Source: Acidobacteriota bacterium
Lineage (GTDB): Bacteria > Acidobacteriota > UBA6911 > RPQK01 > JAJDTT01
DNA length: 64,000 bases
Assembly: GCA_965217775.1 (NCBI GenBank)
Contig: CBDCJH010000002.1
Coordinates: forward strand, 5,280,001 to 5,344,000
Direction of reading: 5' to 3'
The notes beneath the pieces were generated by a model. The model saw only the letters and a program-made list of their open reading frames with translations, did no database searches and was not told where the DNA came from. This document shows, piece after piece, positions 4,720 through 64,000 of this stretch. The translations under genes and the position numbers were made by a program. Each line of letters opens with the position of its first letter. Within the stretch, counting starts at the first letter, position 1.

Positions 4720-5211
4720 CGGCGAAGCTGCATCATTTGCCATCGTGAGGAGTTGGCTGTCTGCGGTTCCCTGGGGGGCGAAGATTGGAGCGAAAGGCAG
4801 TCTAAAGCTTGAACATTGGTGCGAGCAGACAACTGTTTATGGCACACGAGAACGTGACTGTCCCCCTTTTCGGTCCCCCGCGCATTCCGGTGCCACTCGG
4901 CGCGCTCTTCCTTCCGGGCGCGGATCTTGATCCAGACGGATCGTTTAGGCGGGCTCATCGGCGGGGGTTCCTCCGGGCCGGGGGTTCCAGGGGGGCGGCT
5001 CTTGGCCCTCCTGGCCAGTTTCTGCCGGGGGCACGCCTCAGCGTGGCCCCAAAAGTAGGATGGCTCTCTTGTGCAGCATGGGGGGTGACTCATACTGTAC
5101 CTTCTCCGATAATAACCCACGAACTGTTCGCTTGTGGGGGTCTTCAGATAAGCTGAAGATGAGCCAAGGTGAGTTTCGTGAAATTGGCTGCCTTACCAAG
5201 GAGGAGAACAG

Positions 5212-5907
5212 ATGTTCGATCGCGTAACAGAAGATCTCCGTGAACTCCCTGGTTACACGGTTTCGGAAGTAGCACACTACCTCACCGTCCCGCCCGCGAC
5301 TATCCGGTATTGGTCAGTGGGTCGACGCCCGTACAGGCCACTCATTGAGCTTCCCGAGCGGTCCCTGACACGACCGACACTACTCTCGTTCATTAACCTC
5401 GTGGAGCTTCACGTTCTCGCGGCCATCAGACGCACGCATCGTGTAACCATGCCAAAGGTCCGCCAGGCCATCAGGTACTTGAAAGAGATCGATCCATCCG
5501 TAACGGCGCAACGTCATCCGTTGATCAGTCACGAACTGGAAACAAACGGCTTGGATCTGTTCATCGAGCGCTATGGCCGCCTGGTCAATATCAGTCAGTC
5601 GGGTCAGTTGGCTATGCGAGAAGTCCTCGAAGCCGCCTTGCATCGGATCGTTCGCGACATCCACAGGGTACCCATCAAGCTGTATCCATTTACCCGAACT
5701 GACGTGCACGACGCACCCACCACGATTGTCATTGACCCATGGCTGGCTGCCGGCCGTCCCGTGATCGATGGAACTGGCCTTGCCACCCAAATTATTGCCG
5801 AGCGCTATAAGGCAGGTGAATCAGTAAGCCAGTTGGCAGCAGACTACGAGCGTGCAGAGTCGGAAATCGACGAAGCCATCCGATGTGAGATCCCACTGGC
5901 AGCGTGA
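5212..5907 (+). CDS. Putative antitoxin, VapB45-like (N-terminal HTH + DUF433)
   Basis: AGGAGG RBS; YTVSEVAHYL HTH, LSFINLVELHVL, and a C-terminal DUF433-like IDPWLAAGRPVIDGTG...AGESVSQLAADY. Confidence 0.8.
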   Translation: MFDRVTEDLRELPGYTVSEVAHYLTVPPATIRYWSVGRRPYRPLIELPERSLTRPTLLSFINLVELHVLAAIRRTHRVTMPKVRQAIRYLKEIDPSVTAQRHPLISHELETNGLDLFIERYGRLVNISQSGQLAMREVLEAALHRIVRDIHRVPIKLYPFTRTDVHDAPTTIVIDPWLAAGRPVIDGTGLATQIIAERYKAGESVSQLAADYERAESEIDEAIRCEIPLAA

Positions 5908-6295
5908 GGAGCCCACCCTCTTTCTAGACCGCAGTCTGGGAAAACACATCATTGCAGACAGACTTCGTCGAGAGGGGATCAAAGTCGAGGTGCATGACGA
6001 CTACCTTCCAAATACTGCACCAGATGAAGAATGGATCGCCCTTGTTGGAGAGAGGTGCTGGGTTGCGCTCACGAAAGACAAACGCATCCGTTACCGGACC
6101 GCTGAGATCAGATCTGTTGTGGCGAATGCAGCTCGGCTCATCGTGATTCAGATAAATAATGCAAAAGGATCGGATATTGCCGAGGTATTGGTGAAAAGCC
6201 GCCGCCGTATTGCCCGCTTCACGGCAAAGAGGGATGCTCCGTTCGTGGCTGCGATTTATCGGGACGGTAGGATGCGAGAATATTCCATCACATGA
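5885..6295 (+). CDS. PIN-like toxin, VapC45-like
   Basis: FLDRSLG, DEEWI and ALTKDKRIR motifs. Overlaps the end of the antitoxin; the GTG start at 5885 is tentative. Confidence 0.75.
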   Translation: MRSHWQREEPTLFLDRSLGKHIIADRLRREGIKVEVHDDYLPNTAPDEEWIALVGERCWVALTKDKRIRYRTAEIRSVVANAARLIVIQINNAKGSDIAEVLVKSRRRIARFTAKRDAPFVAAIYRDGRMREYSIT

Positions 6296-6337
6296 CGAGG
6301 TGAGTCCTGGGCGCGTGCCGCCGAGAGTGAGGCTTGA

Positions 6338-6424
6338 GCCCGGGTGGCGAAAACAGGTAGACGCGCAGGACTTAAAATCCTACGAAGGTAACTCTCCTTG
6401 TGGGGTCGACTCCCACTCCGGGCA
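6338..6424 (+). tRNA. tRNA-Leu(TAA)-like gene, atypical (possibly a pseudo-tRNA)
   Basis: Acceptor stem GCCCGGG/TCCGGGC plus A, D-arm GCG...GGTAGA-CGC, anticodon loop CTTAAAA, long variable arm, T-stem GTGGG/CCCAC. The T-loop is GTCGACT, there is a C-A mismatch in the anticodon stem, and no CCA is encoded. Confidence 0.7.
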
Positions 6425-6556
6425 CTCTTGAAGGCTGGCCCCCCGCAGGCTGATAGGGGTGTTGAGGGTCTGTTCTCCCCCCTTGTGGGAAATCTCTTGG
6501 CTGCTCAGGCCGGGCTGCGCTGTGGTGGGTGGAAGTAGGTGGAACAGAGGGGGGAG

Positions 6557-7156
6557 ATGTACGGGACGGGTCCGACTTACGAGGAGTACAAGAGAGACCT
6601 CGAAGTGGCCCGGAACGGGCACGAGCAAGCGGCCCGTGAGCGGATTATTGTCACTTTGGGACTTCTTCTTGAATGCTCGACCGTGCGGGCGCAGAAGAAA
6701 GTCCAGCACCGAATCCAGACCTTTTCCGTACAGGAACTCTTTCGCGATCAGGACGATGCTGGCTGTTTGAACCAGTCTTCGGTCAACCGGCGCCGATCGG
6801 AGATCCAAGACGATCCCAATTCAGGGATCACGACAATCGGTACCCTGCCGGCGTGGGTCTTCCCCTCCTTTGCCGCGGCCGCGCTGGAGCCCAGCTTCGG
6901 GGAGCATTTCGATATCATCGGCGTTAAAGTGCCCGAGGCCCGGCTCCAGTGCATTCCGGCCCTCGACAGTGAGGAGTACCGTCGGCTGATCGAGGTGCGC
7001 AACCAGATGTGGGAAACCATCATCCGGGGCCAACGCGTCCAACCCAGTGACATCCGCACCCGGATGCAGACCGAAATCGAGTCGAGAAACGGTCTCGTAG
7101 CCGACTATTACGACCAACTCGCAGAGCAGTTGGATTCCAGACGCATTAACACCTAA
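6557..7156 (+). CDS. Hypothetical protein
   Basis: ATG after a GGGGGAG RBS; about 200 codons filling the gap between the tRNA and a convergent gene; no recognised motif. Confidence 0.55.
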   Translation: MYGTGPTYEEYKRDLEVARNGHEQAARERIIVTLGLLLECSTVRAQKKVQHRIQTFSVQELFRDQDDAGCLNQSSVNRRRSEIQDDPNSGITTIGTLPAWVFPSFAAAALEPSFGEHFDIIGVKVPEARLQCIPALDSEEYRRLIEVRNQMWETIIRGQRVQPSDIRTRMQTEIESRNGLVADYYDQLAEQLDSRRINT

Positions 7157-11793: not shown

Positions 11794-12726
11794 ATGCGCC
11801 TGTGGCTGATGGCTTGTCTCCTGGCCTTTACGGCTTCTTCGGTCCGGGGCCAGGACAGAATCCGCGTCGGCGCCTGGAACATCGAGACCCTGGGATCGCC
11901 CGAAAGCCGGGACTATCTGCGGAAGTCTCCCTCCAACGGTTACGGCGTGGCTCGAAAGCCGCCGGAACTGGCGGATCTGATCGAAGCTCTGCGACTCGAC
12001 GTGCTCGCCCTTTCCGAGATCGACGACACCAAAGCCGGGGACGGCACGGCGACGAACCGGGTACTGGACGAGGCCTTCGCGATTCTGAATCGCCGTTCCG
12101 GCAACGACTGGACGTATGGGTTGTTCCCCAAACGGATCCGCCGGCATAGCTCCCAACACACGGGTCTGGCCTGGAACCGTCGGCGCATTCGAGCCGTGGG
12201 CAGGCGTTTCCGGGTGCCTGTCACCGACGTCACCTCACGCCGGTTCTTCGAGTGGGACCGGCATCCCCACGCCATGAAGTTCACTCGGGGAAGAGGCCGC
12301 ACTGATTTCGTGGTGATTCCCATCCACATGAAGGCGGGACGAAATGAGGCGGCCGTGAAGCAGAGGCGGAGTGAAGCGGAGGCGCTGGTCCGGGAGTTAT
12401 CGGAGATCCAAGATCATTTTCAGGACCAGGACATCATTCTCATCGGCGATTTCAATATGCTTCGGCGCAGCGAACCGGCCGGCCGCGTTTACCGGAGGAA
12501 GGGAGGTCTGTTCGATCTGAACTATTCCGATCGATCCACCCATATCGCCGATCTTCCCTTCGACCGGTGCTACATCCCAAGGGCCCAGCGGGAGAACGAG
12601 TTCGCCGGCGTCACCCAGGTTCGGATCGACGCGCCGCCGCCGCCGGCCCAAAGACGCTTCCGCCGCCAGTTCTCCGATCATTGGCCCATCGTCCTCGAGT
12701 TCGCGGAGCAGGCCGACGACGATTGA
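11794..12726 (+). CDS. Secreted endonuclease/exonuclease/phosphatase (DNase I-like) protein
   Basis: Signal peptide, AWNIE, DVLALSE, IGDFN, SDHWP. Confidence 0.85.
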   Translation: MRLWLMACLLAFTASSVRGQDRIRVGAWNIETLGSPESRDYLRKSPSNGYGVARKPPELADLIEALRLDVLALSEIDDTKAGDGTATNRVLDEAFAILNRRSGNDWTYGLFPKRIRRHSSQHTGLAWNRRRIRAVGRRFRVPVTDVTSRRFFEWDRHPHAMKFTRGRGRTDFVVIPIHMKAGRNEAAVKQRRSEAEALVRELSEIQDHFQDQDIILIGDFNMLRRSEPAGRVYRRKGGLFDLNYSDRSTHIADLPFDRCYIPRAQRENEFAGVTQVRIDAPPPPAQRRFRRQFSDHWPIVLEFAEQADDD

Positions 12727-12751
12727 CCGCGCGGCAACAAGCCGCATGGGT

Positions 12752-12818
12752 CGCTCCGGTTTGGACGGAAGAGGGCGCCCACAAGGGGGAAGAGGGCACC
12801 CACAAGGGGCGTCCCTAC
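12752..12818 (-). repeat. GTAG-type REP element (tandem palindrome)
   Basis: Minus strand reads GTAGGGACGCCCCTTGTGGGTGCCCTC followed by a partial second copy; lies between convergent genes; similar to 39085-39130. Confidence 0.7.
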
Positions 12819-12821
12819 GCC

Positions 12822-14144
12822 TCACCAGCCCTTCCAACTGCCGTCGGCGTGCCGGTACTGGCGGTAGGACATTTTGGCGTCATAGCGAAGCTTGGCGATG
12901 TCGGCTTCCTTGACCCGGATCCCGAGACCGGGACGGTCGCTGAGCCGGACGTGGCCGTCCACCAGCGAAAGGTCATGCTCCACGTACCGGCCCATCCGTT
13001 CCAGCCCCCAGGCTTCCTGGACCAGGAAATTGGAGATGACGGCATCCGCCTGAAACAGGGCCGCCAAATGGATGGGCCCCGACGCGTTGTGGGGCGCCAT
13101 CAGGATCTGGGCCTCCTCGGCCAGGCGCGAGATGGCCAGGAACTGGGTGATGCCGAAGGCATGGCTCAGGTCGGGCTGAAGAAAGGCGCAGGCTCGTGCA
13201 TCGATGACATCCTTGAATTCCCGGTAGGAGAAGAGCTTTTCCCCCGTAGCGATGGGAACCGGGCTGCGCGCCGAGATCTCCTTGAGCGCCGCGATGGATC
13301 CCACCTTGCAAGGTTCCTCCAGGAAGAGAGGCTGGTAGGGAGCCACGGCGTCGGCGAAGGCGATGGCCAGGGCCGGAGTGGGACTGCCGTGGGTGTCCAG
13401 CATCAGGTCGATCTCCGGTCCCACCTCCTCCCGAACGGCCGCCACGATCCGGACGCACTCGTCCAAGGCTCCCCGGTCCATGGGCCAGGTCCGCATCTCC
13501 AGCGGGTTTCCCTTGAGGCCTCGAACTCCCGAGGCGACGGCGGCGCGAGCCCGGGCCACGGCCTCCTGGATCGATTCGAAGCTGATCCCGCCGTGGTAGA
13601 CGCGGATTCGGTCTCGCTTCCGGCCTCCCAGGATCTGGTAGACGGGGACACCCCAAGCCTTGCCGGCGATGTCATAGAGAGCCATGTTCACCGCCGCCAG
13701 GGCAGAACCCAGAACCGGGCCGCCCTTCCAGGGAAGCCGGTCCGAGATGTCGTCGCACAGAGCGACCACGTTCAGAGGATTTTGGCCCACCAAAAGCTCC
13801 CGCCAGCCCTCCAGCGTCGTTTTCACCGCCGGCGAAAGCCATTCGATACTGGCTTCCCCCCATCCGGAGAGCTCCGTATCGGTCTCGATCTTGAGAAACA
13901 GCCAGGTCTTGAAGCTGCTGGCGATGCTCCTTCGGACCCCCTTCCTGGGAGGAGGACTTCCAGTCGGCACGTTGAACATGTAGGTCTTCATTCCGGTGAT
14001 TTTCATGGGTCCTGTTCTTCTCCGCCTGGGAGGCTCCTGTGGCCTCGGTGTGGACGCAAAAAGGGCACCGGCCGACGATCCGAGGCCCGCCGTGGCGATC
14101 AGGAAATCACGACGGTCCAGGCCATCCGCTCGGCATGGGAGCAT
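12822..14144 (-). CDS. Mandelate racemase/muconate lactonizing enzyme family dehydratase (DgoD-like) with a Tat-like leader
   Basis: GWGEA, ALYDIAGKAWGVPVYQILGG, LMLDTHG, FLEEP, IATGEK, APHN. Start is either 14144 (DRRDFL leader) or 14006. Confidence 0.85.
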   Translation of the reverse strand: MLPCRADGLDRRDFLIATAGLGSSAGALFASTPRPQEPPRRRRTGPMKITGMKTYMFNVPTGSPPPRKGVRRSIASSFKTWLFLKIETDTELSGWGEASIEWLSPAVKTTLEGWRELLVGQNPLNVVALCDDISDRLPWKGGPVLGSALAAVNMALYDIAGKAWGVPVYQILGGRKRDRIRVYHGGISFESIQEAVARARAAVASGVRGLKGNPLEMRTWPMDRGALDECVRIVAAVREEVGPEIDLMLDTHGSPTPALAIAFADAVAPYQPLFLEEPCKVGSIAALKEISARSPVPIATGEKLFSYREFKDVIDARACAFLQPDLSHAFGITQFLAISRLAEEAQILMAPHNASGPIHLAALFQADAVISNFLVQEAWGLERMGRYVEHDLSLVDGHVRLSDRPGLGIRVKEADIAKLRYDAKMSYRQYRHADGSWKGW

Positions 14145-14151
14145 GGTGGTG

Positions 14152-14994
14152 TCAATGGTTCGAAGCTGTTTCCAACCTCGATTCAATCTCTCGCAGGTAG
14201 GAAATGCTCTCTCGGGCGATTCGCTCGCCACCGGCCTGGAAATCGAAGACCTCCAAGGAAACCCAGCCCCCATAGTTCCGATCCCGAAGGAATCGGAGAA
14301 GGCGTTCGAAGTCCACGTCGCCGGTGCCGGGGTGGCGGCCGTCGATCTCGTTCACGTGGACGTGGCGAATTCGGGACCAGTAACGCTCGGCCAGACTGAG
14401 GAAGTCGCCCCCCTCATCGGCAGCGTTGTGACAGTCGAACATGGTCCGGACGTGACCATGGGAGACCCGGTCCACCACTTCGACCGCTTCCGCCAGAGTG
14501 GAGACCACATCCGTCTCCTCGCTCGAAACGGCCTCCATCAGGAGCGTCACGTCCCGGTCCCTCGCCGCGGGGGCCAGCTCGGACAGTCCCTCGGCGAGTC
14601 GTCCCAGCGCTTCTTGGGTCGTCATTCCGTCCCGAGTGTTCCGCTGTTGGGGCGAGCCGAGGATCATGAGATGTCCTCCCAGGTCCGCGCAGAAGTCGAT
14701 GAGCCGTGAGAGATAGGACCAACTCTTCTCCCTCAGGGTCCGGTCCCGGGTCGTCAGATGGAGTCCCCTGGGCTTGACCAGGAGCCAGTGAATCCCCGAG
14801 CAGACCATTCCCTCTCCTTCGATGGTCTGCCGAAGCTGCCGCCGGCGGCGGGGCGAGATCTGATCCACCGAGTCGGCCAGCGTGAAGGGGGCCACCTCCA
14901 GGCCCCGGTACCCCAGTTTGCGAACGGTCCGGCAGGTCCGGGCCAAGTCCTGTTCCCCAAAGATCTCACTGCAGATCGCATGTTTCAGTCGCAA
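14152..14994 (-). CDS. Sugar phosphate isomerase/epimerase (xylose isomerase-like TIM barrel)
   Basis: GYRGLE, LMEAV, MFDCHN, HVHVNE, PGTGDVDF, WVSLEVF; TTG start after GGGAG. Confidence 0.85.
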   Translation of the reverse strand: MRLKHAICSEIFGEQDLARTCRTVRKLGYRGLEVAPFTLADSVDQISPRRRRQLRQTIEGEGMVCSGIHWLLVKPRGLHLTTRDRTLREKSWSYLSRLIDFCADLGGHLMILGSPQQRNTRDGMTTQEALGRLAEGLSELAPAARDRDVTLLMEAVSSEETDVVSTLAEAVEVVDRVSHGHVRTMFDCHNAADEGGDFLSLAERYWSRIRHVHVNEIDGRHPGTGDVDFERLLRFLRDRNYGGWVSLEVFDFQAGGERIARESISYLREIESRLETASNH

Positions 14995-58753: not shown

Positions 58754-59461
58754 CTAATCGGGTGTCTTTCGGATCTTCAGGTGCTTGCGGATCCAGCTCT
58801 GGTCCTGGAGTTTGATGTCGTAGTCCTTCCGCAAAGGAAATCCATGCCAGTCGTCGGGAAGGAGAATCCGTTTCATGTCGGGATGGCCGGAGAACAGAAT
58901 CCCGAACATGTCGTAGACCTCCCGTTCCAGCCAGTCGGCGGTCTTCCAGATGGAGGTCATGGAGGGAACCGGATCGCCCTCCCGCACCCGGCTCTTGACG
59001 CGAATCAGCTTTTTGGTCGCGTAGGAATAGAGCTGGTAGACCATCAGGAACCGTTCCTGGTCCCCCAGGTAGTCCAGGGCCGAGACGTCGATCAGGTAGT
59101 CGAAAGGAGATTCGGAATGGTCGCGCAGGGCGAGCATGACGTCGTAGAGGGCGGCCGGCGTCACCGTGTAGATGCTCTGGCCCAGGAACGACTGCCCCGA
59201 GAGGATCTCGCCCGGAAACTGCTCTCTCAGACTCTCCAGGACCGCATCGTCCTTCAGGTCTTCGTAGCTCGGCCCCTTCTTTCTCCTCTTCCGAAGCCGC
59301 CGCTTGCGAAGCGGCCGCTTGCGAAGAAGTCGCTTGCGAACCGGCCGCTTGCGAACCGGCCGCTTCCGCGCGGGACGGGCAACCCGGGTCCTGGGGCGCC
59401 GCGCCGGCTTCGGCTTCTCGCCGTCTGAGTTGGTCTTCTTCGCCCTGGTCTCGTCGTCCAT
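58754..59461 (-). CDS. nuoC: NADH-quinone oxidoreductase subunit C with an Arg/Lys-rich N-terminal repeat
   Basis: [14 protein letters not shown]...[11 protein letters not shown]...PLRKDY. Confidence 0.93.
59286..59368 (-). repeat. 15-nt coding tandem repeat (~5.5 units) in nuoC
   Basis: Plus-strand units CGCTTGCGAA(C/G)CGGC encode [20 protein letters not shown]. Confidence 0.85.
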
Positions 59462-59497
59462 CTTCAAGAGGGGTTGGGAAGGGCTTCCCGGGGGAAG

Positions 59498-60443: not shown

Positions 60444-60535
60444 CGCTAACTCCTTGGGGAAAGTCCCATCCGGGACCCGTTCACCGTACGAGTGCCTATT
60501 CTAGCAGACCGAATCACGGCGTTCGACGGAAAACA

Positions 60536-60558
60536 GGAGGGGGACATTCTTGTCCCCC
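60536..60558 (+). repeat. GGAG-tagged palindrome or terminator-like hairpin
   Basis: GGAG GGGGAC ATTCTT GTCCCC followed by a T-rich tail; same layout as the intron-target palindrome. Confidence 0.45.
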
Positions 60559-60690
60559 ACTCTTTTTCTCCGCGTTTCATTGTAATTTCGGGAGCTAATA
60601 CACCACCGCTCCCGGACAACCCCTCCCTATCTTCCCGGATCGCGCCGGCCCGTGGCAGGTGGAGAAGTTACTTGGAAACTACAAACTGAG

Positions 60691-60856
60691 GTGAGAAGCG
60701 GGGCCGTTGGTGGCGTGGTCGCCGTTGCCGTAGGTCTGAACTCAACGCCGTTGGGGACCCCTTTTTCGTGCCCCCATCAGTCCACCGGACTGTTCCGCCG
60801 CGAACCTGTCCGGAAGGAATCCAGGACCGACCCGCCGAGGAGGGTGCCGGCCGGGG
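60691..60856 (+). ncRNA. Candidate structured ncRNA (6S-like rod)
   Basis: Non-coding gap with nested long-range pairings: GGCCG 60702/CGGCC 60848, GGTC 60717/GACC 60825, TAGGT 60731/ACCTG 60804. Followed by a hairpin. The family assignment comes from remembered motif similarity only. Confidence 0.4.
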
Positions 60857-60883
60857 GAGGGCGACCGCAAGGGTCGCTCTCAC
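60857..60883 (-). repeat. Degenerate GTAG-family REP hairpin
   Basis: GAGGGCGACCGCAAGGGTCGCTCTCAC, same architecture as GAGGGCACCCACAAGGGG...CCCTAC. Confidence 0.55.
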
Positions 60884-60959: not shown

Positions 60960-61229
60960 TCAGTTCGAGGCGGTCAAAGTGCGATGGGTCACGGATCGAA
61001 CCTCACCAGAAAGGTCATCGACATGAACGACCTTGAAGGTTCGTTCGGTGTTCAGGGGGAGTAGAAAAGACGGTCGAACGAAGCTGATGGTCACCTTCCA
61101 GGTAGGTGGTCCTTCCGTGAATCTGATCTCTTCCAGCCTTGGATCCTGGATTTCTTCATCCGCAAAAATCGTGACGAGGCTCTCCTTCGCTTTTTTCACG
61201 GCTTCTCTGACGTCCATTCGGCCCTTCAT
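60960..61229 (-). CDS. Small conserved hypothetical protein
   Basis: MDVREAVKKAK...RLEEI...WKVTISF...FKVVHVDD.SGEVRSV pattern; AAGGAG upstream. Confidence 0.65.
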   Translation of the reverse strand: MKGRMDVREAVKKAKESLVTIFADEEIQDPRLEEIRFTEGPPTWKVTISFVRPSFLLPLNTERTFKVVHVDDLSGEVRSVTHRTLTASN

Positions 61230-61555
61230 GGTTCCACCATCTCCTTTCTCCAGCCGCACGGTCCATTCTCCCATTTCCCCAACCACGAGACCATCAGGGG
61301 GAGCTGACGCTCGCTACGATGCGCGTGTTGGATTTGGCCCATGCGGTCCCGGAGGTCCCCGATTCTCGACTTCAAGCCGTCGATTCCGCCGGATAGACGA
61401 AACTCTGACCGATTCATCCTGGACTTCAGGCGGGCCTAAAACTGTACAATGTCCTGGCGCAACTCGACGCGTACATTCCTGATGGCTCGGCCGGTGAGGA
61501 GAGACCCCCAAATGACGATGGCGGGACTGATCCACTGAGCAAGTTCGCTCGGCAT
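61226..61555 (-). pseudogene. Possible pseudogene of a short TM + coiled-coil protein
   Basis: ORFs 61436..61657 and 61226..61417 share a frame and are separated by one TAG at 61436-61438. Confidence 0.35.
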
Positions 61556-62086
61556 CGGTTCCTTCTGGCGAACAGCCATAGCGTCCCGGATGCGCTCCGG
61601 TGTCCGGACGGCAACTGAACGGGCAGTCTTCCCAAATCGGACCTCGATCCGCCTCATGCTAAATTGAACTCAGTCGTTACACCTATAGGAGACCCTATCC
61701 CAGACCTGCGAAGCTATCCTGGAGGTTGTGAACAGGAGGGATATTTCCGAGCGGCGCTGCCACGAACGGCCCGGGCTTTCGAGTCGGTGTCCCTGGAGCC
61801 CCTCGAAGGAGGAATTGTCGAGCCGAAGTTCTGCGCCTGCGTCGAGCACGTCCACGAGATCCCGGCTCCAAGATTGTTCCGGCGCAGAATCGGTCTGTTG
61901 GAGTGCCAATGCCATTCAAACTGAATCCTCTCTTCAGCCGAATCATGCGGAATGATCTCCAGTCCAGCGATGAACGAGCCGTGATTCCGCGCGCCCGACC
62001 AATGACCGATTCCAAAACTCAGGGAACACCATCAATTGGTTGGAATCCTTAATCAATATGCTTATATTCGTGTCAGGATCGCACTG

Positions 62087-62800
62087 GTGATTGCTCTTAT
62101 TGACTACGATAATCTTGATATCCTGGTACGTCGTCGTGGCGTGAGGCACGTCATAACTAGTCTGCTCCAGGCGCTGGTTCGTCAGCGAGTCGCCGGAGAG
62201 CGGACGATAGACTGCCGCCTATACGGCGGCTGGTTCGAAAAAACATCGCTGTCCCCCCACGCACAACGGCTCTTGCCAGAGGTGCGGCGCGAGTTCCCGA
62301 GTTCCATAACCGTCCCCGATCGCGAGGGCACAAGGATTATTCTCGTTCGCGCAGAGCTAGCGCTTACGATGGTTTGCGATCCCAAAGTAGAACTCACGCA
62401 TACGTACCGCCGGCGTTCACTACCGCGACGTTTACAATGTGTCGCACCGCCCTTCCCGAACTGCGCGGATCCATCGCGTTGTCCAATTGCGAGCCTCAAT
62501 CCGTTCATTCGGGACGATGCGTGTCCAGTGGACAGCTGTGTTGTTACGCCCCGTACAGCATTGAAACGCGCAGAGCAGAAACTGGTCGACTCCATGATCG
62601 TCATCGATCTGGCACATCTGGCGGACGTGACGTCGGAGCCTCTGATCGTGGTTTCGGCGGACGATGATCTTTGGCCGGGCATTCGCTTTGTACTTCTACG
62701 CGGAGCGCGCGTCGTACATGTGGTACCTCGCCACGGTAGATCGGCGTCGGATCGGTATCTGCGTCTAGAAACGGCAAGGTATACCCAACTCGTATTGTAG
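62087..62800 (+). CDS. NYN (LabA/DUF88, PIN-fold) ribonuclease-like protein with a Cys-rich insert
   Basis: LIDYDN, RLYGGW, EQKLVD, VVSADDDLWP acidic motifs; GTG start after AGGA. Confidence 0.8.
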   Translation: MIALIDYDNLDILVRRRGVRHVITSLLQALVRQRVAGERTIDCRLYGGWFEKTSLSPHAQRLLPEVRREFPSSITVPDREGTRIILVRAELALTMVCDPKVELTHTYRRRSLPRRLQCVAPPFPNCADPSRCPIASLNPFIRDDACPVDSCVVTPRTALKRAEQKLVDSMIVIDLAHLADVTSEPLIVVSADDDLWPGIRFVLLRGARVVHVVPRHGRSASDRYLRLETARYTQLVL

Positions 62801-62810
62801 GAGGCAACAC

Positions 62811-64000
62811 ATGCAGATCGATGATTTCATGCGAATCGTGACTTGCTTTGCCGATCACGGAGATGATGTGTACAAGAGCCAGGGTGAACTGGTGGTTCAA
62901 ATTCGAGATGAGACGATAAGTGCCAAGTTGCTTCAACGTGCCGGACGGTTGATCGTCGAAGAAGATGATCAGCGGATGCCTGCCGAGTCATGGATCGTGA
63001 ACCGCGTGGCGCGAGTTTCACTGTTGGCAAATCGCGTTTGTTCGTACGTTTCGCCACCGCCTCACTTTGTCACGCCATCCGGTCGCTTTCTCGATCGACC
63101 GGATCAGGCATCCTCAGACGACGATGTCCACCAGGAGAACGTGGTGCAGACTCTGACTGAGACGCTCGACCAACACGTTGCAGGTACGACATCGGTAGTC
63201 TACCTGACGTCCGATGCGGGCGAAGGCAAGACGTCACTCATCGATTTTCTGGCCGTCAAACAGGCGGAGGAATACCGGGCGAAACGATCGGATTGGCTGC
63301 TCGTCCCGATTCCTCTAGGGGGAAGGACGTTTCTGAGGTTTGACGACGTAGTCGTTTCGGCGCTTGTGAACCGGCTGCGCTTTCAACTTCTCTACTACGA
63401 CGCGTTTCTCGAGTTGGTGCGCCTCGGCGTACTGGTGCCAGCTTTCGACGGTTTCGAAGAGATGATCGTAGAGTCGTCCCCCGGCGAAGCTATATCTGCA
63501 CTCGGTGGTTTGGTCACACGCCTACAGTCTGCTGGAACGCTTCTCATTGCGGCTCGCAAGGCATATTTCGACTATCCTAGCTTCAGTTCGCAGGCAAGGC
63601 TCTTCGACAGCATCGGTGCCGGCCGAGATGTGGCGTTCAATCGTGTTTCGTTGAATTGTTGGGACCGAAACAAATTCACGCAGTACGCGCGCAAACGAGG
63701 TGTGGATGCCCCTTATGATCTGTTTAATGTGGTCGCGGATCGGCTTGGCGAACGGCATCCCGTGTTGACCCGTGCCGTGCTGGTTACTCGACTCGTCGAC
63801 GTCGCGAGAAACGAAGCTGATCTACAGGGGGTACTGAAACGCGTCGGACAGGATCCCCAGGATTACTTTCACGAGTTTGTCAGCGGCCTCGTAGAACGGG
63901 AAGCCAAGCACAAGTGGTTGGACACCTCCGGAGATCCACCCCAGTCGATATTAACGACTGAGGAACATCACGAATTGTTGGCTAGTTTGGCGCAAGAAAT
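62811..64000 (+). CDS. NACHT/STAND-like P-loop NTPase (runs off the right window edge)
   Basis: Not in the ORF track; translated by hand. AGGAGG RBS and ATG 62811, open to the window end. Walker A YLTSDAGEGKTS (~63201-63236), Walker B LVPAFDGFEE (~63432-63461), LLIAARKAYF, and a helical HELLASLAQE segment. Confidence 0.8.
   Translation, partial: MQIDDFMRIVTCFADHGDDVYKSQGELVVQIRDETISAKLLQRAGRLIVEEDDQRMPAESWIVNRVARVSLLANRVCSYVSPPPHFVTPSGRFLDRPDQASSDDDVHQENVVQTLTETLDQHVAGTTSVVYLTSDAGEGKTSLIDFLAVKQAEEYRAKRSDWLLVPIPLGGRTFLRFDDVVVSALVNRLRFQLLYYDAFLELVRLGVLVPAFDGFEEMIVESSPGEAISALGGLVTRLQSAGTLLIAARKAYFDYPSFSSQARLFDSIGAGRDVAFNRVSLNCWDRNKFTQYARKRGVDAPYDLFNVVADRLGERHPVLTRAVLVTRLVDVARNEADLQGVLKRVGQDPQDYFHEFVSGLVEREAKHKWLDTSGDPPQSILTTEEHHELLASLAQE

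Follow-up and report, generated by a model that had tools for sequence, protein, structure and literature searches.

In the accessible text of the Kibby et al. preprint, bacterial NACHT (bNACHT) proteins are single proteins with an effector fused at the N-terminus, and bNACHT01 is not encoded in an operon. Pentapeptide repeats are found among their sensor types, and the RNase effectors named in that text are Schlafen and HEPN, with NYN not among them. A broader survey of STAND proteins by Lee et al. (Nature 2026, PMC13581612) reports, in the parts available, 589 STAND clades and clusters sensors of at least 400 residues. Here we describe a gene pair at the right end of a 64,000-nucleotide stretch of an Acidobacteriota genome (GenBank assembly GCA_965217775.1, contig CBDCJH010000002.1, positions 5,280,001 to 5,344,000 of the forward strand; hereafter the window), in which the gene for a predicted NYN-type nuclease (gene A) directly precedes the gene for a predicted NACHT-clade STAND nucleoside triphosphatase (NTPase; gene B). 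Reading from the sequence and from structure models, we consider the pair to be probably an undescribed split NLR-type abortive-infection (anti-phage) system in which the effector is a separate protein.

A first-pass annotation of the window had proposed a split sensor-effector module, and this reading is supported by the folds of the two proteins, the linkage of their genes, the defence context and the predicted binding of one protein to the other. Gene A (62087..62800, plus strand) encodes 237 amino acids (aa) from a GTG start to a TAG stop at 62798-62800. As annotated, this stop overlaps the ribosome-binding site of gene B, an AGGAGG at 62799-62804 on the plus strand, and the gene B ATG at 62811 follows the stop after a gap of 10 nt; the corresponding distance is 9–13 nt in 21 other loci listed. 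The window holds the first 396 of 757 codons of gene B (62811..64000, plus strand). The rest of the gene, whose retrieval had been recommended, was recovered from the same genome (G000, contig 2), where the 757-aa frame occupies positions 4811-7084 of locus L002, equivalent to 62811-65084 in window numbering (L002 coordinates are window coordinates minus 58000). A longer open reading frame (ORF) for gene A is available from a TTG at 62036; we place the start at 62087 because 27 homologues all begin there (M-I-x-L-I-D-Y-D-N). We read the two genes as one operon, which more probably than not encodes a split NLR-type immune module.

Predicted folds and contact of the two proteins

The gene B product was modelled from an alignment of 53 sequences with identities down to 28%, giving a predicted local distance difference test score (pLDDT) of 86.5 and a predicted template modelling score of 0.83. 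The best 50 Foldseek matches of this model are all NLR proteins save one ORC entry, with NLRC4 (4kxf, E 1.7e-11) and NOD2 (5irl, E 1.6e-10) on top together with NLRP3, NLRP9 and NAIP5. VIA-align superposed NLRs at Z 13.4–14.3 over 349–462 residues, including NLRP3 (Z 14.3 and 14.1), NLRP9 (13.7) and NOD2 (13.6) over 392–462 residues, whereas ORC/Cdc6 and plant NB-ARC proteins reached at most Z 11.6 over about 220 residues. NLR structures are therefore the best matches by both programs, in agreement with the earlier assignment of gene B as a NACHT/STAND NTPase, and on the strength of the model we predict that its product is a NACHT-clade STAND NTPase.

The annotated nucleotide-binding motifs are present in the sequence. 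The Walker A motif S-D-A-G-E-G-K-T (residues 134-141; 63210..63233, plus strand) departs from the consensus GxxGxGK[ST] only in its first glycine, which is a serine. G137, G139 and K140 are invariant in the 53 sequences, and S134, A136, E138 and T141 are at least 90% conserved. The Walker B motif F-D-G-F-E-E (residues 212-217; 63444..63461, plus strand) has D213, G214, E216 and E217 invariant. Because these residues are invariant among 53 relatives, the motifs are not chance occurrences. We also found an invariant histidine, H455, in an F-x-H context within the winged-helix region, and we take it to be the equivalent of the NLR histidine. The NACHT signature given in the available part of the Kibby et al. 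preprint is D[GAS]hDE, a small residue after the magnesium-binding aspartate and two acidic residues one position further on; D213-G214-F215-E216-E217 fits it, with glutamate rather than aspartate as the first acidic residue.

In the model, a 125-aa N-terminal domain is followed by nucleotide-binding, helical and winged-helix domains of the NLR type. The first P-loop strand begins at residue 127, in accord with the annotated length of about 125 aa ahead of the P-loop domain. The N-terminal domain had been described as free of a recognisable effector, and this holds for residues 1-125 in Pfam, PADLOC and NCBIfam, none of which gave a match, and in the Atlas look-up, which made no assignment and whose best score of 0.83 is also reached by shuffled sequences. 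Beyond the NACHT module the model shows a pentapeptide-repeat beta-helix of about four coils (about residues 547-625) and then an alpha/beta domain (residues 666-757) that, from the secondary-structure pattern of the model only, we read as winged-helix-like. Residues 550-617 match pentapeptide-repeat profiles, with the McbG-like protein 2xt2 at E 1.5e-3, and a profile search against PDB sequences returned pentapeptide-repeat matches only. Pfam Pentapeptide_4 matches 30 of the 53 relatives, and NCBIfam HalA matches residues 571-615 locally and weakly (E 1e-4). Sequence profiles otherwise gave weak AAA_16, nSTAND and pentapeptide matches.

The gene B family is large. We found at least 891 word-indexed matches, and a gene B profile retrieved 1311 representatives of 50%-identity clusters at E ≤ 1e-3 (572 at 1e-30). 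Among the matches listed, the representatives are almost all about 750 aa long. The only source name met for relatives in the public databases searched is "hypothetical protein".

The gene A product was modelled from a 28-sequence alignment (pLDDT 81.7) and had 187 word-indexed matches. Foldseek gave no match at E ≤ 1e-3, and the fold is read from an exhaustive VIA-align search alone. In that search the NYN domain of MARF1 (5yaa) ranks first, with Z 11.7, a root-mean-square deviation of 3.0 and 136 of 150 residues aligned, and 2qip ranks second with Z 10.2; the next row reaches only 8.0. Two acidic motifs accompany the fold: D-Y-D-N (residues 6-9; 62102..62113, plus strand), with D6 and N9 invariant in 28 sequences, and a C-terminal acidic cluster S-A-D-D-D (residues 190-194; 62654..62668, plus strand), with S190, D192 and D194 invariant. 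D168 and D174 are likewise invariant. We take D6, N9, D168, D174, D192 and D194 to be the catalytic positions, going by familiar NYN motifs and by the partial Pfam NYN alignment, which spans residues 160-214. Pfam PF01936 is precomputed for a minority of the 120 relatives listed. The annotation of gene A as an NYN protein is borne out by the fold of the model and by the invariance of the acidic motifs, and gene A is predicted to encode an NYN/PIN-like metal-dependent nuclease with an intact set of acidic motifs. Between the motifs lies an insert with four cysteines (C126, C132, C146 and C151; 62462..62539, plus strand) that are invariant in the 28 sequences and presumed to bind zinc. This insert is modelled at lower confidence (pLDDT 61–75) and is absent in two distant paralogous pairs, L038 and the second pair of L003, whose NYN proteins are shorter.

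The substrate of such a nuclease could be RNA or DNA. A module of the same architecture, with sensing, whose nuclease cut phage or host DNA instead of RNA would draw on the membership of DNA flap nucleases in the PIN-like class, with ExoIX, T4 RNase H and a mycobacterial flap endonuclease superposing on the gene A model at Z 6.4–6.9, and on the four-cysteine insert and the NTPase C-terminal domain, either of which could bind DNA. Against this, the two clear structural matches are both NYN proteins and score well above the flap nucleases, and the characterised NYN proteins, for example MARF1 and Rae1/YacP, are RNases. We regard a DNA substrate as unlikely.

Complex modelling, which had been recommended as a check, supports direct binding of the nuclease to the NTPase. 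With both alignments the predicted complex had an interface score (ipSAE) of 0.73 (runs 0.70, 0.73 and 0.76), whereas the best of three controls scored 0.00. At least 92% of contacts are common to the runs, and the partner has a pLDDT of at least 80. In the calibration of the tool, 116 of 157 solved complexes reached the score mark, as did 2 of 215 mismatched pairs, a guide that is rough here since custom alignments were used. The predicted contacts involve nuclease residues 54-73, 84-101 and 180-182, and on the NTPase the nucleotide-binding domain (174-197) and the winged-helix/helical region (396-416, 446, 477-486 and 520-526). In NLRs, the nucleotide-binding and winged-helix/helical parts move relative to each other on activation.

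Linkage, mobility and surroundings of the pair

Conservation of the pair was assessed in 42 further NTPase loci: 30 genome loci from a scan of one genome per species, a second pair in locus L003, five IMG/VR contigs and six loci of relatives of the window's genome. The 30 genome loci come from Vicinamibacterales, Bryobacterales, Terriglobia, Binatia, Thermodesulfobacteriota, Rhodothermales and one gammaproteobacterium of the Steroidobacteraceae. Two loci (L022 and L036) begin at a contig end, leaving 40 that are assessable. In 38/40 the NTPase gene is immediately preceded, on the same strand, by an NYN gene or what remains of one, at NTPase identities down to 24–30%, and the NYN gene is uninterrupted in 30/40 (in L024 its first 25 residues are unaligned). 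The co-occurrence that the annotation had asked about thus extends across phyla and prophages, and the pair is inherited as a unit. The two loci without an NYN gene (L028 and L043) both have a truncated NTPase. Clustering of neighbouring ORFs revealed no third conserved gene, the next commonest cluster being present in 4/31 loci. We found no fused NYN-NACHT form, and this is weak evidence; the 150 representatives listed are all at most 786 aa long. Only one longer protein with the gene A type of NYN was found, P0389, of 462 aa, which by precomputed Pfam combines Cas1 (PF01867) with NYN; it may be either a true fusion or an artefact of gene calling.

In eight of the 40 loci the NYN gene is disrupted and the NTPase is intact: by insertions (L011 and L030), by division into two frames (L029 and L035), by an in-frame stop (L016) or by decay to remnants (L012, L017 and L032). 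The reverse, a damaged NTPase beside an intact nuclease, occurs once (L004). This asymmetry fits a costly effector. It also speaks for a toxin-antitoxin-like addiction module, in which the NTPase is only a stoichiometric neutraliser of a toxic NYN protein and stabilises the island or prophage with no phage sensing. The predicted binding points the same way, as do the damaged NTPase of L004, which keeps residues 1-439 and with them most of the predicted contact surface, and the toxin-antitoxin genes (HigBA-like) in the same island as gene A and gene B. However, neutralisation needs far less than an NLR-type switch of 757 aa whose Walker A and B motifs are invariant and which also has a winged-helix histidine and a repeat domain, and the same architecture recurs across 1311 representative clusters. 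Those bacterial NACHT proteins that were tested act as phage sensors, according to the available part of the Kibby et al. preprint. An addiction module therefore seems improbable to us.

Two loci of the Vicinamibacterales carry further features. L003 contains, on the minus strand (11824-14785) and 2.6 kb away from the first, a second, distant NYN and NTPase pair (NTPase 29% identical), whose NYN protein is about 209 aa long and without the four-cysteine insert. In L011 an insertion of about 1.3 kb (5365-6648) interrupts the NYN gene; it carries a 386-aa ORF (5465-6622), which we guess to be a transposase. The NTPase downstream is intact.

The five IMG/VR contigs with the NTPase have an NYN gene upstream in 4/4 assessable cases, and here the pair occupies prophage cargo positions. 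In the P2-like myoviruses L035 and L036 it has tail-fibre-assembly genes on one side and tail-fibre/baseplate genes on the other; in L033 the portal gene follows it directly; and in L034 and L037 it lies among integrase, methylase and lysis genes. The pair in the P2-like prophage L035 (3400-9595) is flanked by two tail-fibre-assembly genes in opposite orientation that share inverted repeats of 54 nt and 31 nt (about 70% identity). Because of these repeats and a DNA invertase gene adjoining the segment, the L035 pair may ride in an invertible tail-fibre segment.

In its own genome the pair sits in a low-GC insertion of about 13 kb. The GC fraction of the stretch is 0.46–0.58 against 0.60–0.63 in the flanks, and the annotated drop relative to the nuo genes is confirmed at 0.54–0.56 over the pair and 0.60–0.63 over nuo. 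The nuoA and epimerase-gene flanks are about 14.5 kb apart here and about 0.2–2.8 kb apart in five same-genus genomes, so the stretch is a strain-specific insertion at a variable site. No tRNA gene and no flanking direct repeats were found at the island borders. At the right border (L002 16751-16920), where similarity to the epimerase flank of the relatives resumes, there is a dispersed repeat of about 165 nt that looks like a miniature inverted-repeat transposable element and is present in 18 to more than 40 copies per genome in five same-genus genomes (76–96% identity).

The pair is horizontally mobile. There is no orthologue in 40 close relatives, two of which have distant paralogues, and a phylum sample gave a match in only 11/401 genomes (8/227 genera). 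This distribution, together with the position of the pair in a strain-specific insertion and inside prophage structural modules and with the frequent inactivation of the nuclease gene, is hard to reconcile with a role in housekeeping or regulation, through RNA processing or turnover, that has nothing to do with mobile-element conflict. Such roles do have precedents: the NYN proteins Rae1/YacP and LabA have cellular functions. STAND NTPases include transcription regulators, as stated in the available part of Lee et al. 2026 (PMC13581612). We consider a housekeeping role very unlikely.

The surroundings of the pair in its own island are those of a defence region: type III restriction-modification, AbiJ-like and HigBA-like genes lie in the same island. 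On the minus strand at L002 7289-14512 (65289-72512 in window numbering, beyond the window end) lie genes for a type III restriction enzyme of 1029 aa and a methylase of 1077 aa. Nested between them is a gene of 303 aa with matches to PADLOC PDC-S32 (E 1e-56) and to Pfam AbiJ_NTD4; the restriction-modification operon thus harbours a candidate defence gene. At L002 14494-16712, also beyond the window end, a 366-aa helix-turn-helix and IrrE/M78 peptidase protein, matching PADLOC PD-Lambda-2_B (E 3e-37), is encoded beside a HigB-like gene and is followed by a separate HigB/HigA pair.

Across the 30 genome loci the defence neighbourhood is suggestive only. A specific PADLOC match lies within 7 kb in 9/30, a count made without comparison to the genomic background. 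Examples are Dsr1, a type IIG restriction-modification gene and DruE in L013, a type I restriction-modification system directly downstream in L020, SspABC and SoFic in L017, and DarG in L021. PADLOC was run on 202/211 neighbour ORFs of at least 150 aa; the remaining nine are five antisense ORFs over the pair (L024, L025 and L028) and the last four ORFs of L032.

Upstream of gene A, a promoter-like site (TTGGAA, 17-nt spacer, TATATT; 62040..62068, plus strand) ends 19 nt before the start codon. It is well placed and without statistical support, being the sole sigma-70-like match in L002 3300-7400, where shuffled sequences average 1.7, no more than chance. A single terminator-like hairpin (L002 7040-7060) falls within the final stretch of the NTPase ORF. 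Further upstream, the "gene debris" of the first-pass annotation stands in part. The 108-aa ORF on the minus strand at 60960-61286 has no Pfam match and is 90–91% identical to ORFs beside nuoA in two same-genus genomes; because of this conservation it is a native small gene and not debris. The remaining stretch holds short dispersed repeats. Elements of 30–40 nt at 60533-60572 and 60843-60880 have many copies in the own and same-genus genomes (85–100% identity) and resemble repetitive extragenic palindromes, and 61337-61600 also resembles several other places at 68–85%. On the minus strand, a nuoC-like ORF (58754-59467) opens with a repetitive stretch of about 70 residues rich in lysine and arginine (R-K-R-P-x-R-K units) ahead of its conserved domain.

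Proposed mode of action

In the split abortive-infection system that we favour, the nuclease would be held inactive on a closed, ADP-type NTPase in the uninfected cell. A phage-derived cue would be recognised by the C-terminal pentapeptide region and the C-terminal domain, and nucleotide exchange would then allow the NTPase to open and oligomerise. The nuclease, released or clustered, would cut RNA (DNA being less likely), the growth of the infected cell would stop and the infection would be aborted.

A more specific form of this scheme, which we put forward only as a tentative and rather doubtful possibility, makes the NACHT protein a clamp. When closed, it would keep the unattached NYN RNase clamped over the hinge that joins the nucleotide-binding and winged-helix parts; opening on activation would free a diffusible toxin, and a minimal sensor would read the trigger. 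This would be a mode of control unlike the proximity-induced activation of fused effectors. The minimal sensor would be the four-coil pentapeptide beta-helix, with its DNA-like surface, plus the small C-terminal domain. Given such a surface, the cue would be a phage DNA-binding protein or a nucleic acid and not a large structural protein.

Several observations weigh against a split immune system of this kind. Neither protein is a clear member of its family by Pfam: NACHT (PF05729) has no match on gene B at E ≤ 0.1 and only weak matches on 11/53 relatives (best 1.4e-4), and NYN (PF01936) on gene A is below threshold (E 0.022, 15.7 bits against a gathering cut-off of 24.2). The predicted interface is no more conserved than the rest of either protein, and conservation therefore adds no support to it: on the NTPase the interface value is 0.540 against 0.487 elsewhere, with 2029/20000 random residue sets reaching the observed value, and on the NYN protein it is 0.531 against 0.617, not higher. 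The sensor region of about 220 residues is far below the sensors of characterised Avs proteins. Sequencing errors in metagenome-assembled genomes may account for some of the NYN frameshifts. The count of defence neighbours has no background control and leaves 21/30 loci without a specific PADLOC match, and there was no match to the pair in PLSDB plasmids, INPHARED phages or complete E. coli genomes.

Comparison with described systems

The annotation had not recognised the pair as a named system, and we reach the same result. PADLOC-DB 2.0.0 has no model that fits either protein, with no family at E ≤ 1 for gene A or for the 396-aa part of gene B in the window and none at E ≤ 0.1 for full-length gene B. 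In the literature searched, which excluded subscription journals, we came across no report that pairs an NYN gene with a NACHT gene. The words "NYN" and "pentapeptide" are absent from the main text and six supplements of PMC13581612; the family may be a clade in two other large supplements of that paper.

If confirmed, the pair would extend the bacterial NLR repertoire by a widespread form made of two proteins. Members of the NTPase family occur in Acidobacteriota, Binatia, Thermodesulfobacteriota, Rhodothermales, a gammaproteobacterium and P2-like prophages. The pair would also offer a tractable case of a NACHT switch controlling a non-covalent effector, which bears on the animal and plant NLRs that recruit separate effectors. 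Specialists would expect the concept; what the family, large and unnamed, would provide is a clean system for the control of an unattached effector by a NACHT switch.

Confirmation would further give an NYN nuclease a function in defence. The only tested NYN candidate that we found, HEC-09 (Payne et al., 10.1101/2024.01.29.577857), protected against none of the phages tested, according to the available text. HEC-09 resembles gene A in having a MARF1-like NYN domain in a defence context, and is set apart by its description as a single gene with an N-terminal helix-turn-helix-like region. HEC-03 from the same study is, like our pair, a two-gene combination of an ATPase and a PIN-fold nuclease, and is likewise set apart by its description, which is headed ABC ATPases and not STAND.

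At the level of the single proteins, gene A shares its fold and conserved acidic residues with the MARF1 NYN domain (5yaa) and with VPA0982 (2qip), but at only 12–15% identity, and it has in addition an insert of about 50 residues with four cysteines and an obligate NTPase partner. Gene B residues 550-617 have the repeat fold of pentapeptide-repeat proteins (McbG-like 2xt2 and HalA 9nyi). In gene B, however, there are about four coils within a NACHT protein, and a common fold is indicated rather than a shared function.

The closest systems as a whole are bNACHT and Avs, again as far as the available parts of the two sources describe them. With bNACHT (Kibby et al. preprint) the pair shares a NACHT-clade NTPase, a Walker B of the D[GAS]hDE type, a winged-helix extension and occurrence in defence islands; the effector is fused there, whereas here it is a separate upstream nuclease gene and the first 125 residues of the NTPase hold no recognisable effector. 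With Avs (Lee et al., Nature 2026, PMC13581612) the pair shares a STAND switch, a C-terminal sensor, a nuclease-type effector and carriage by prophages and defence islands. Avs proteins differ as single chains with sensors of at least 400 residues, mostly TPR-like, against about 220 residues after the NACHT module and a separate effector here. By analogy, the pair would work as bNACHT and Avs proteins do, departing from them in one usual feature, the fusion of the effector to the switch.

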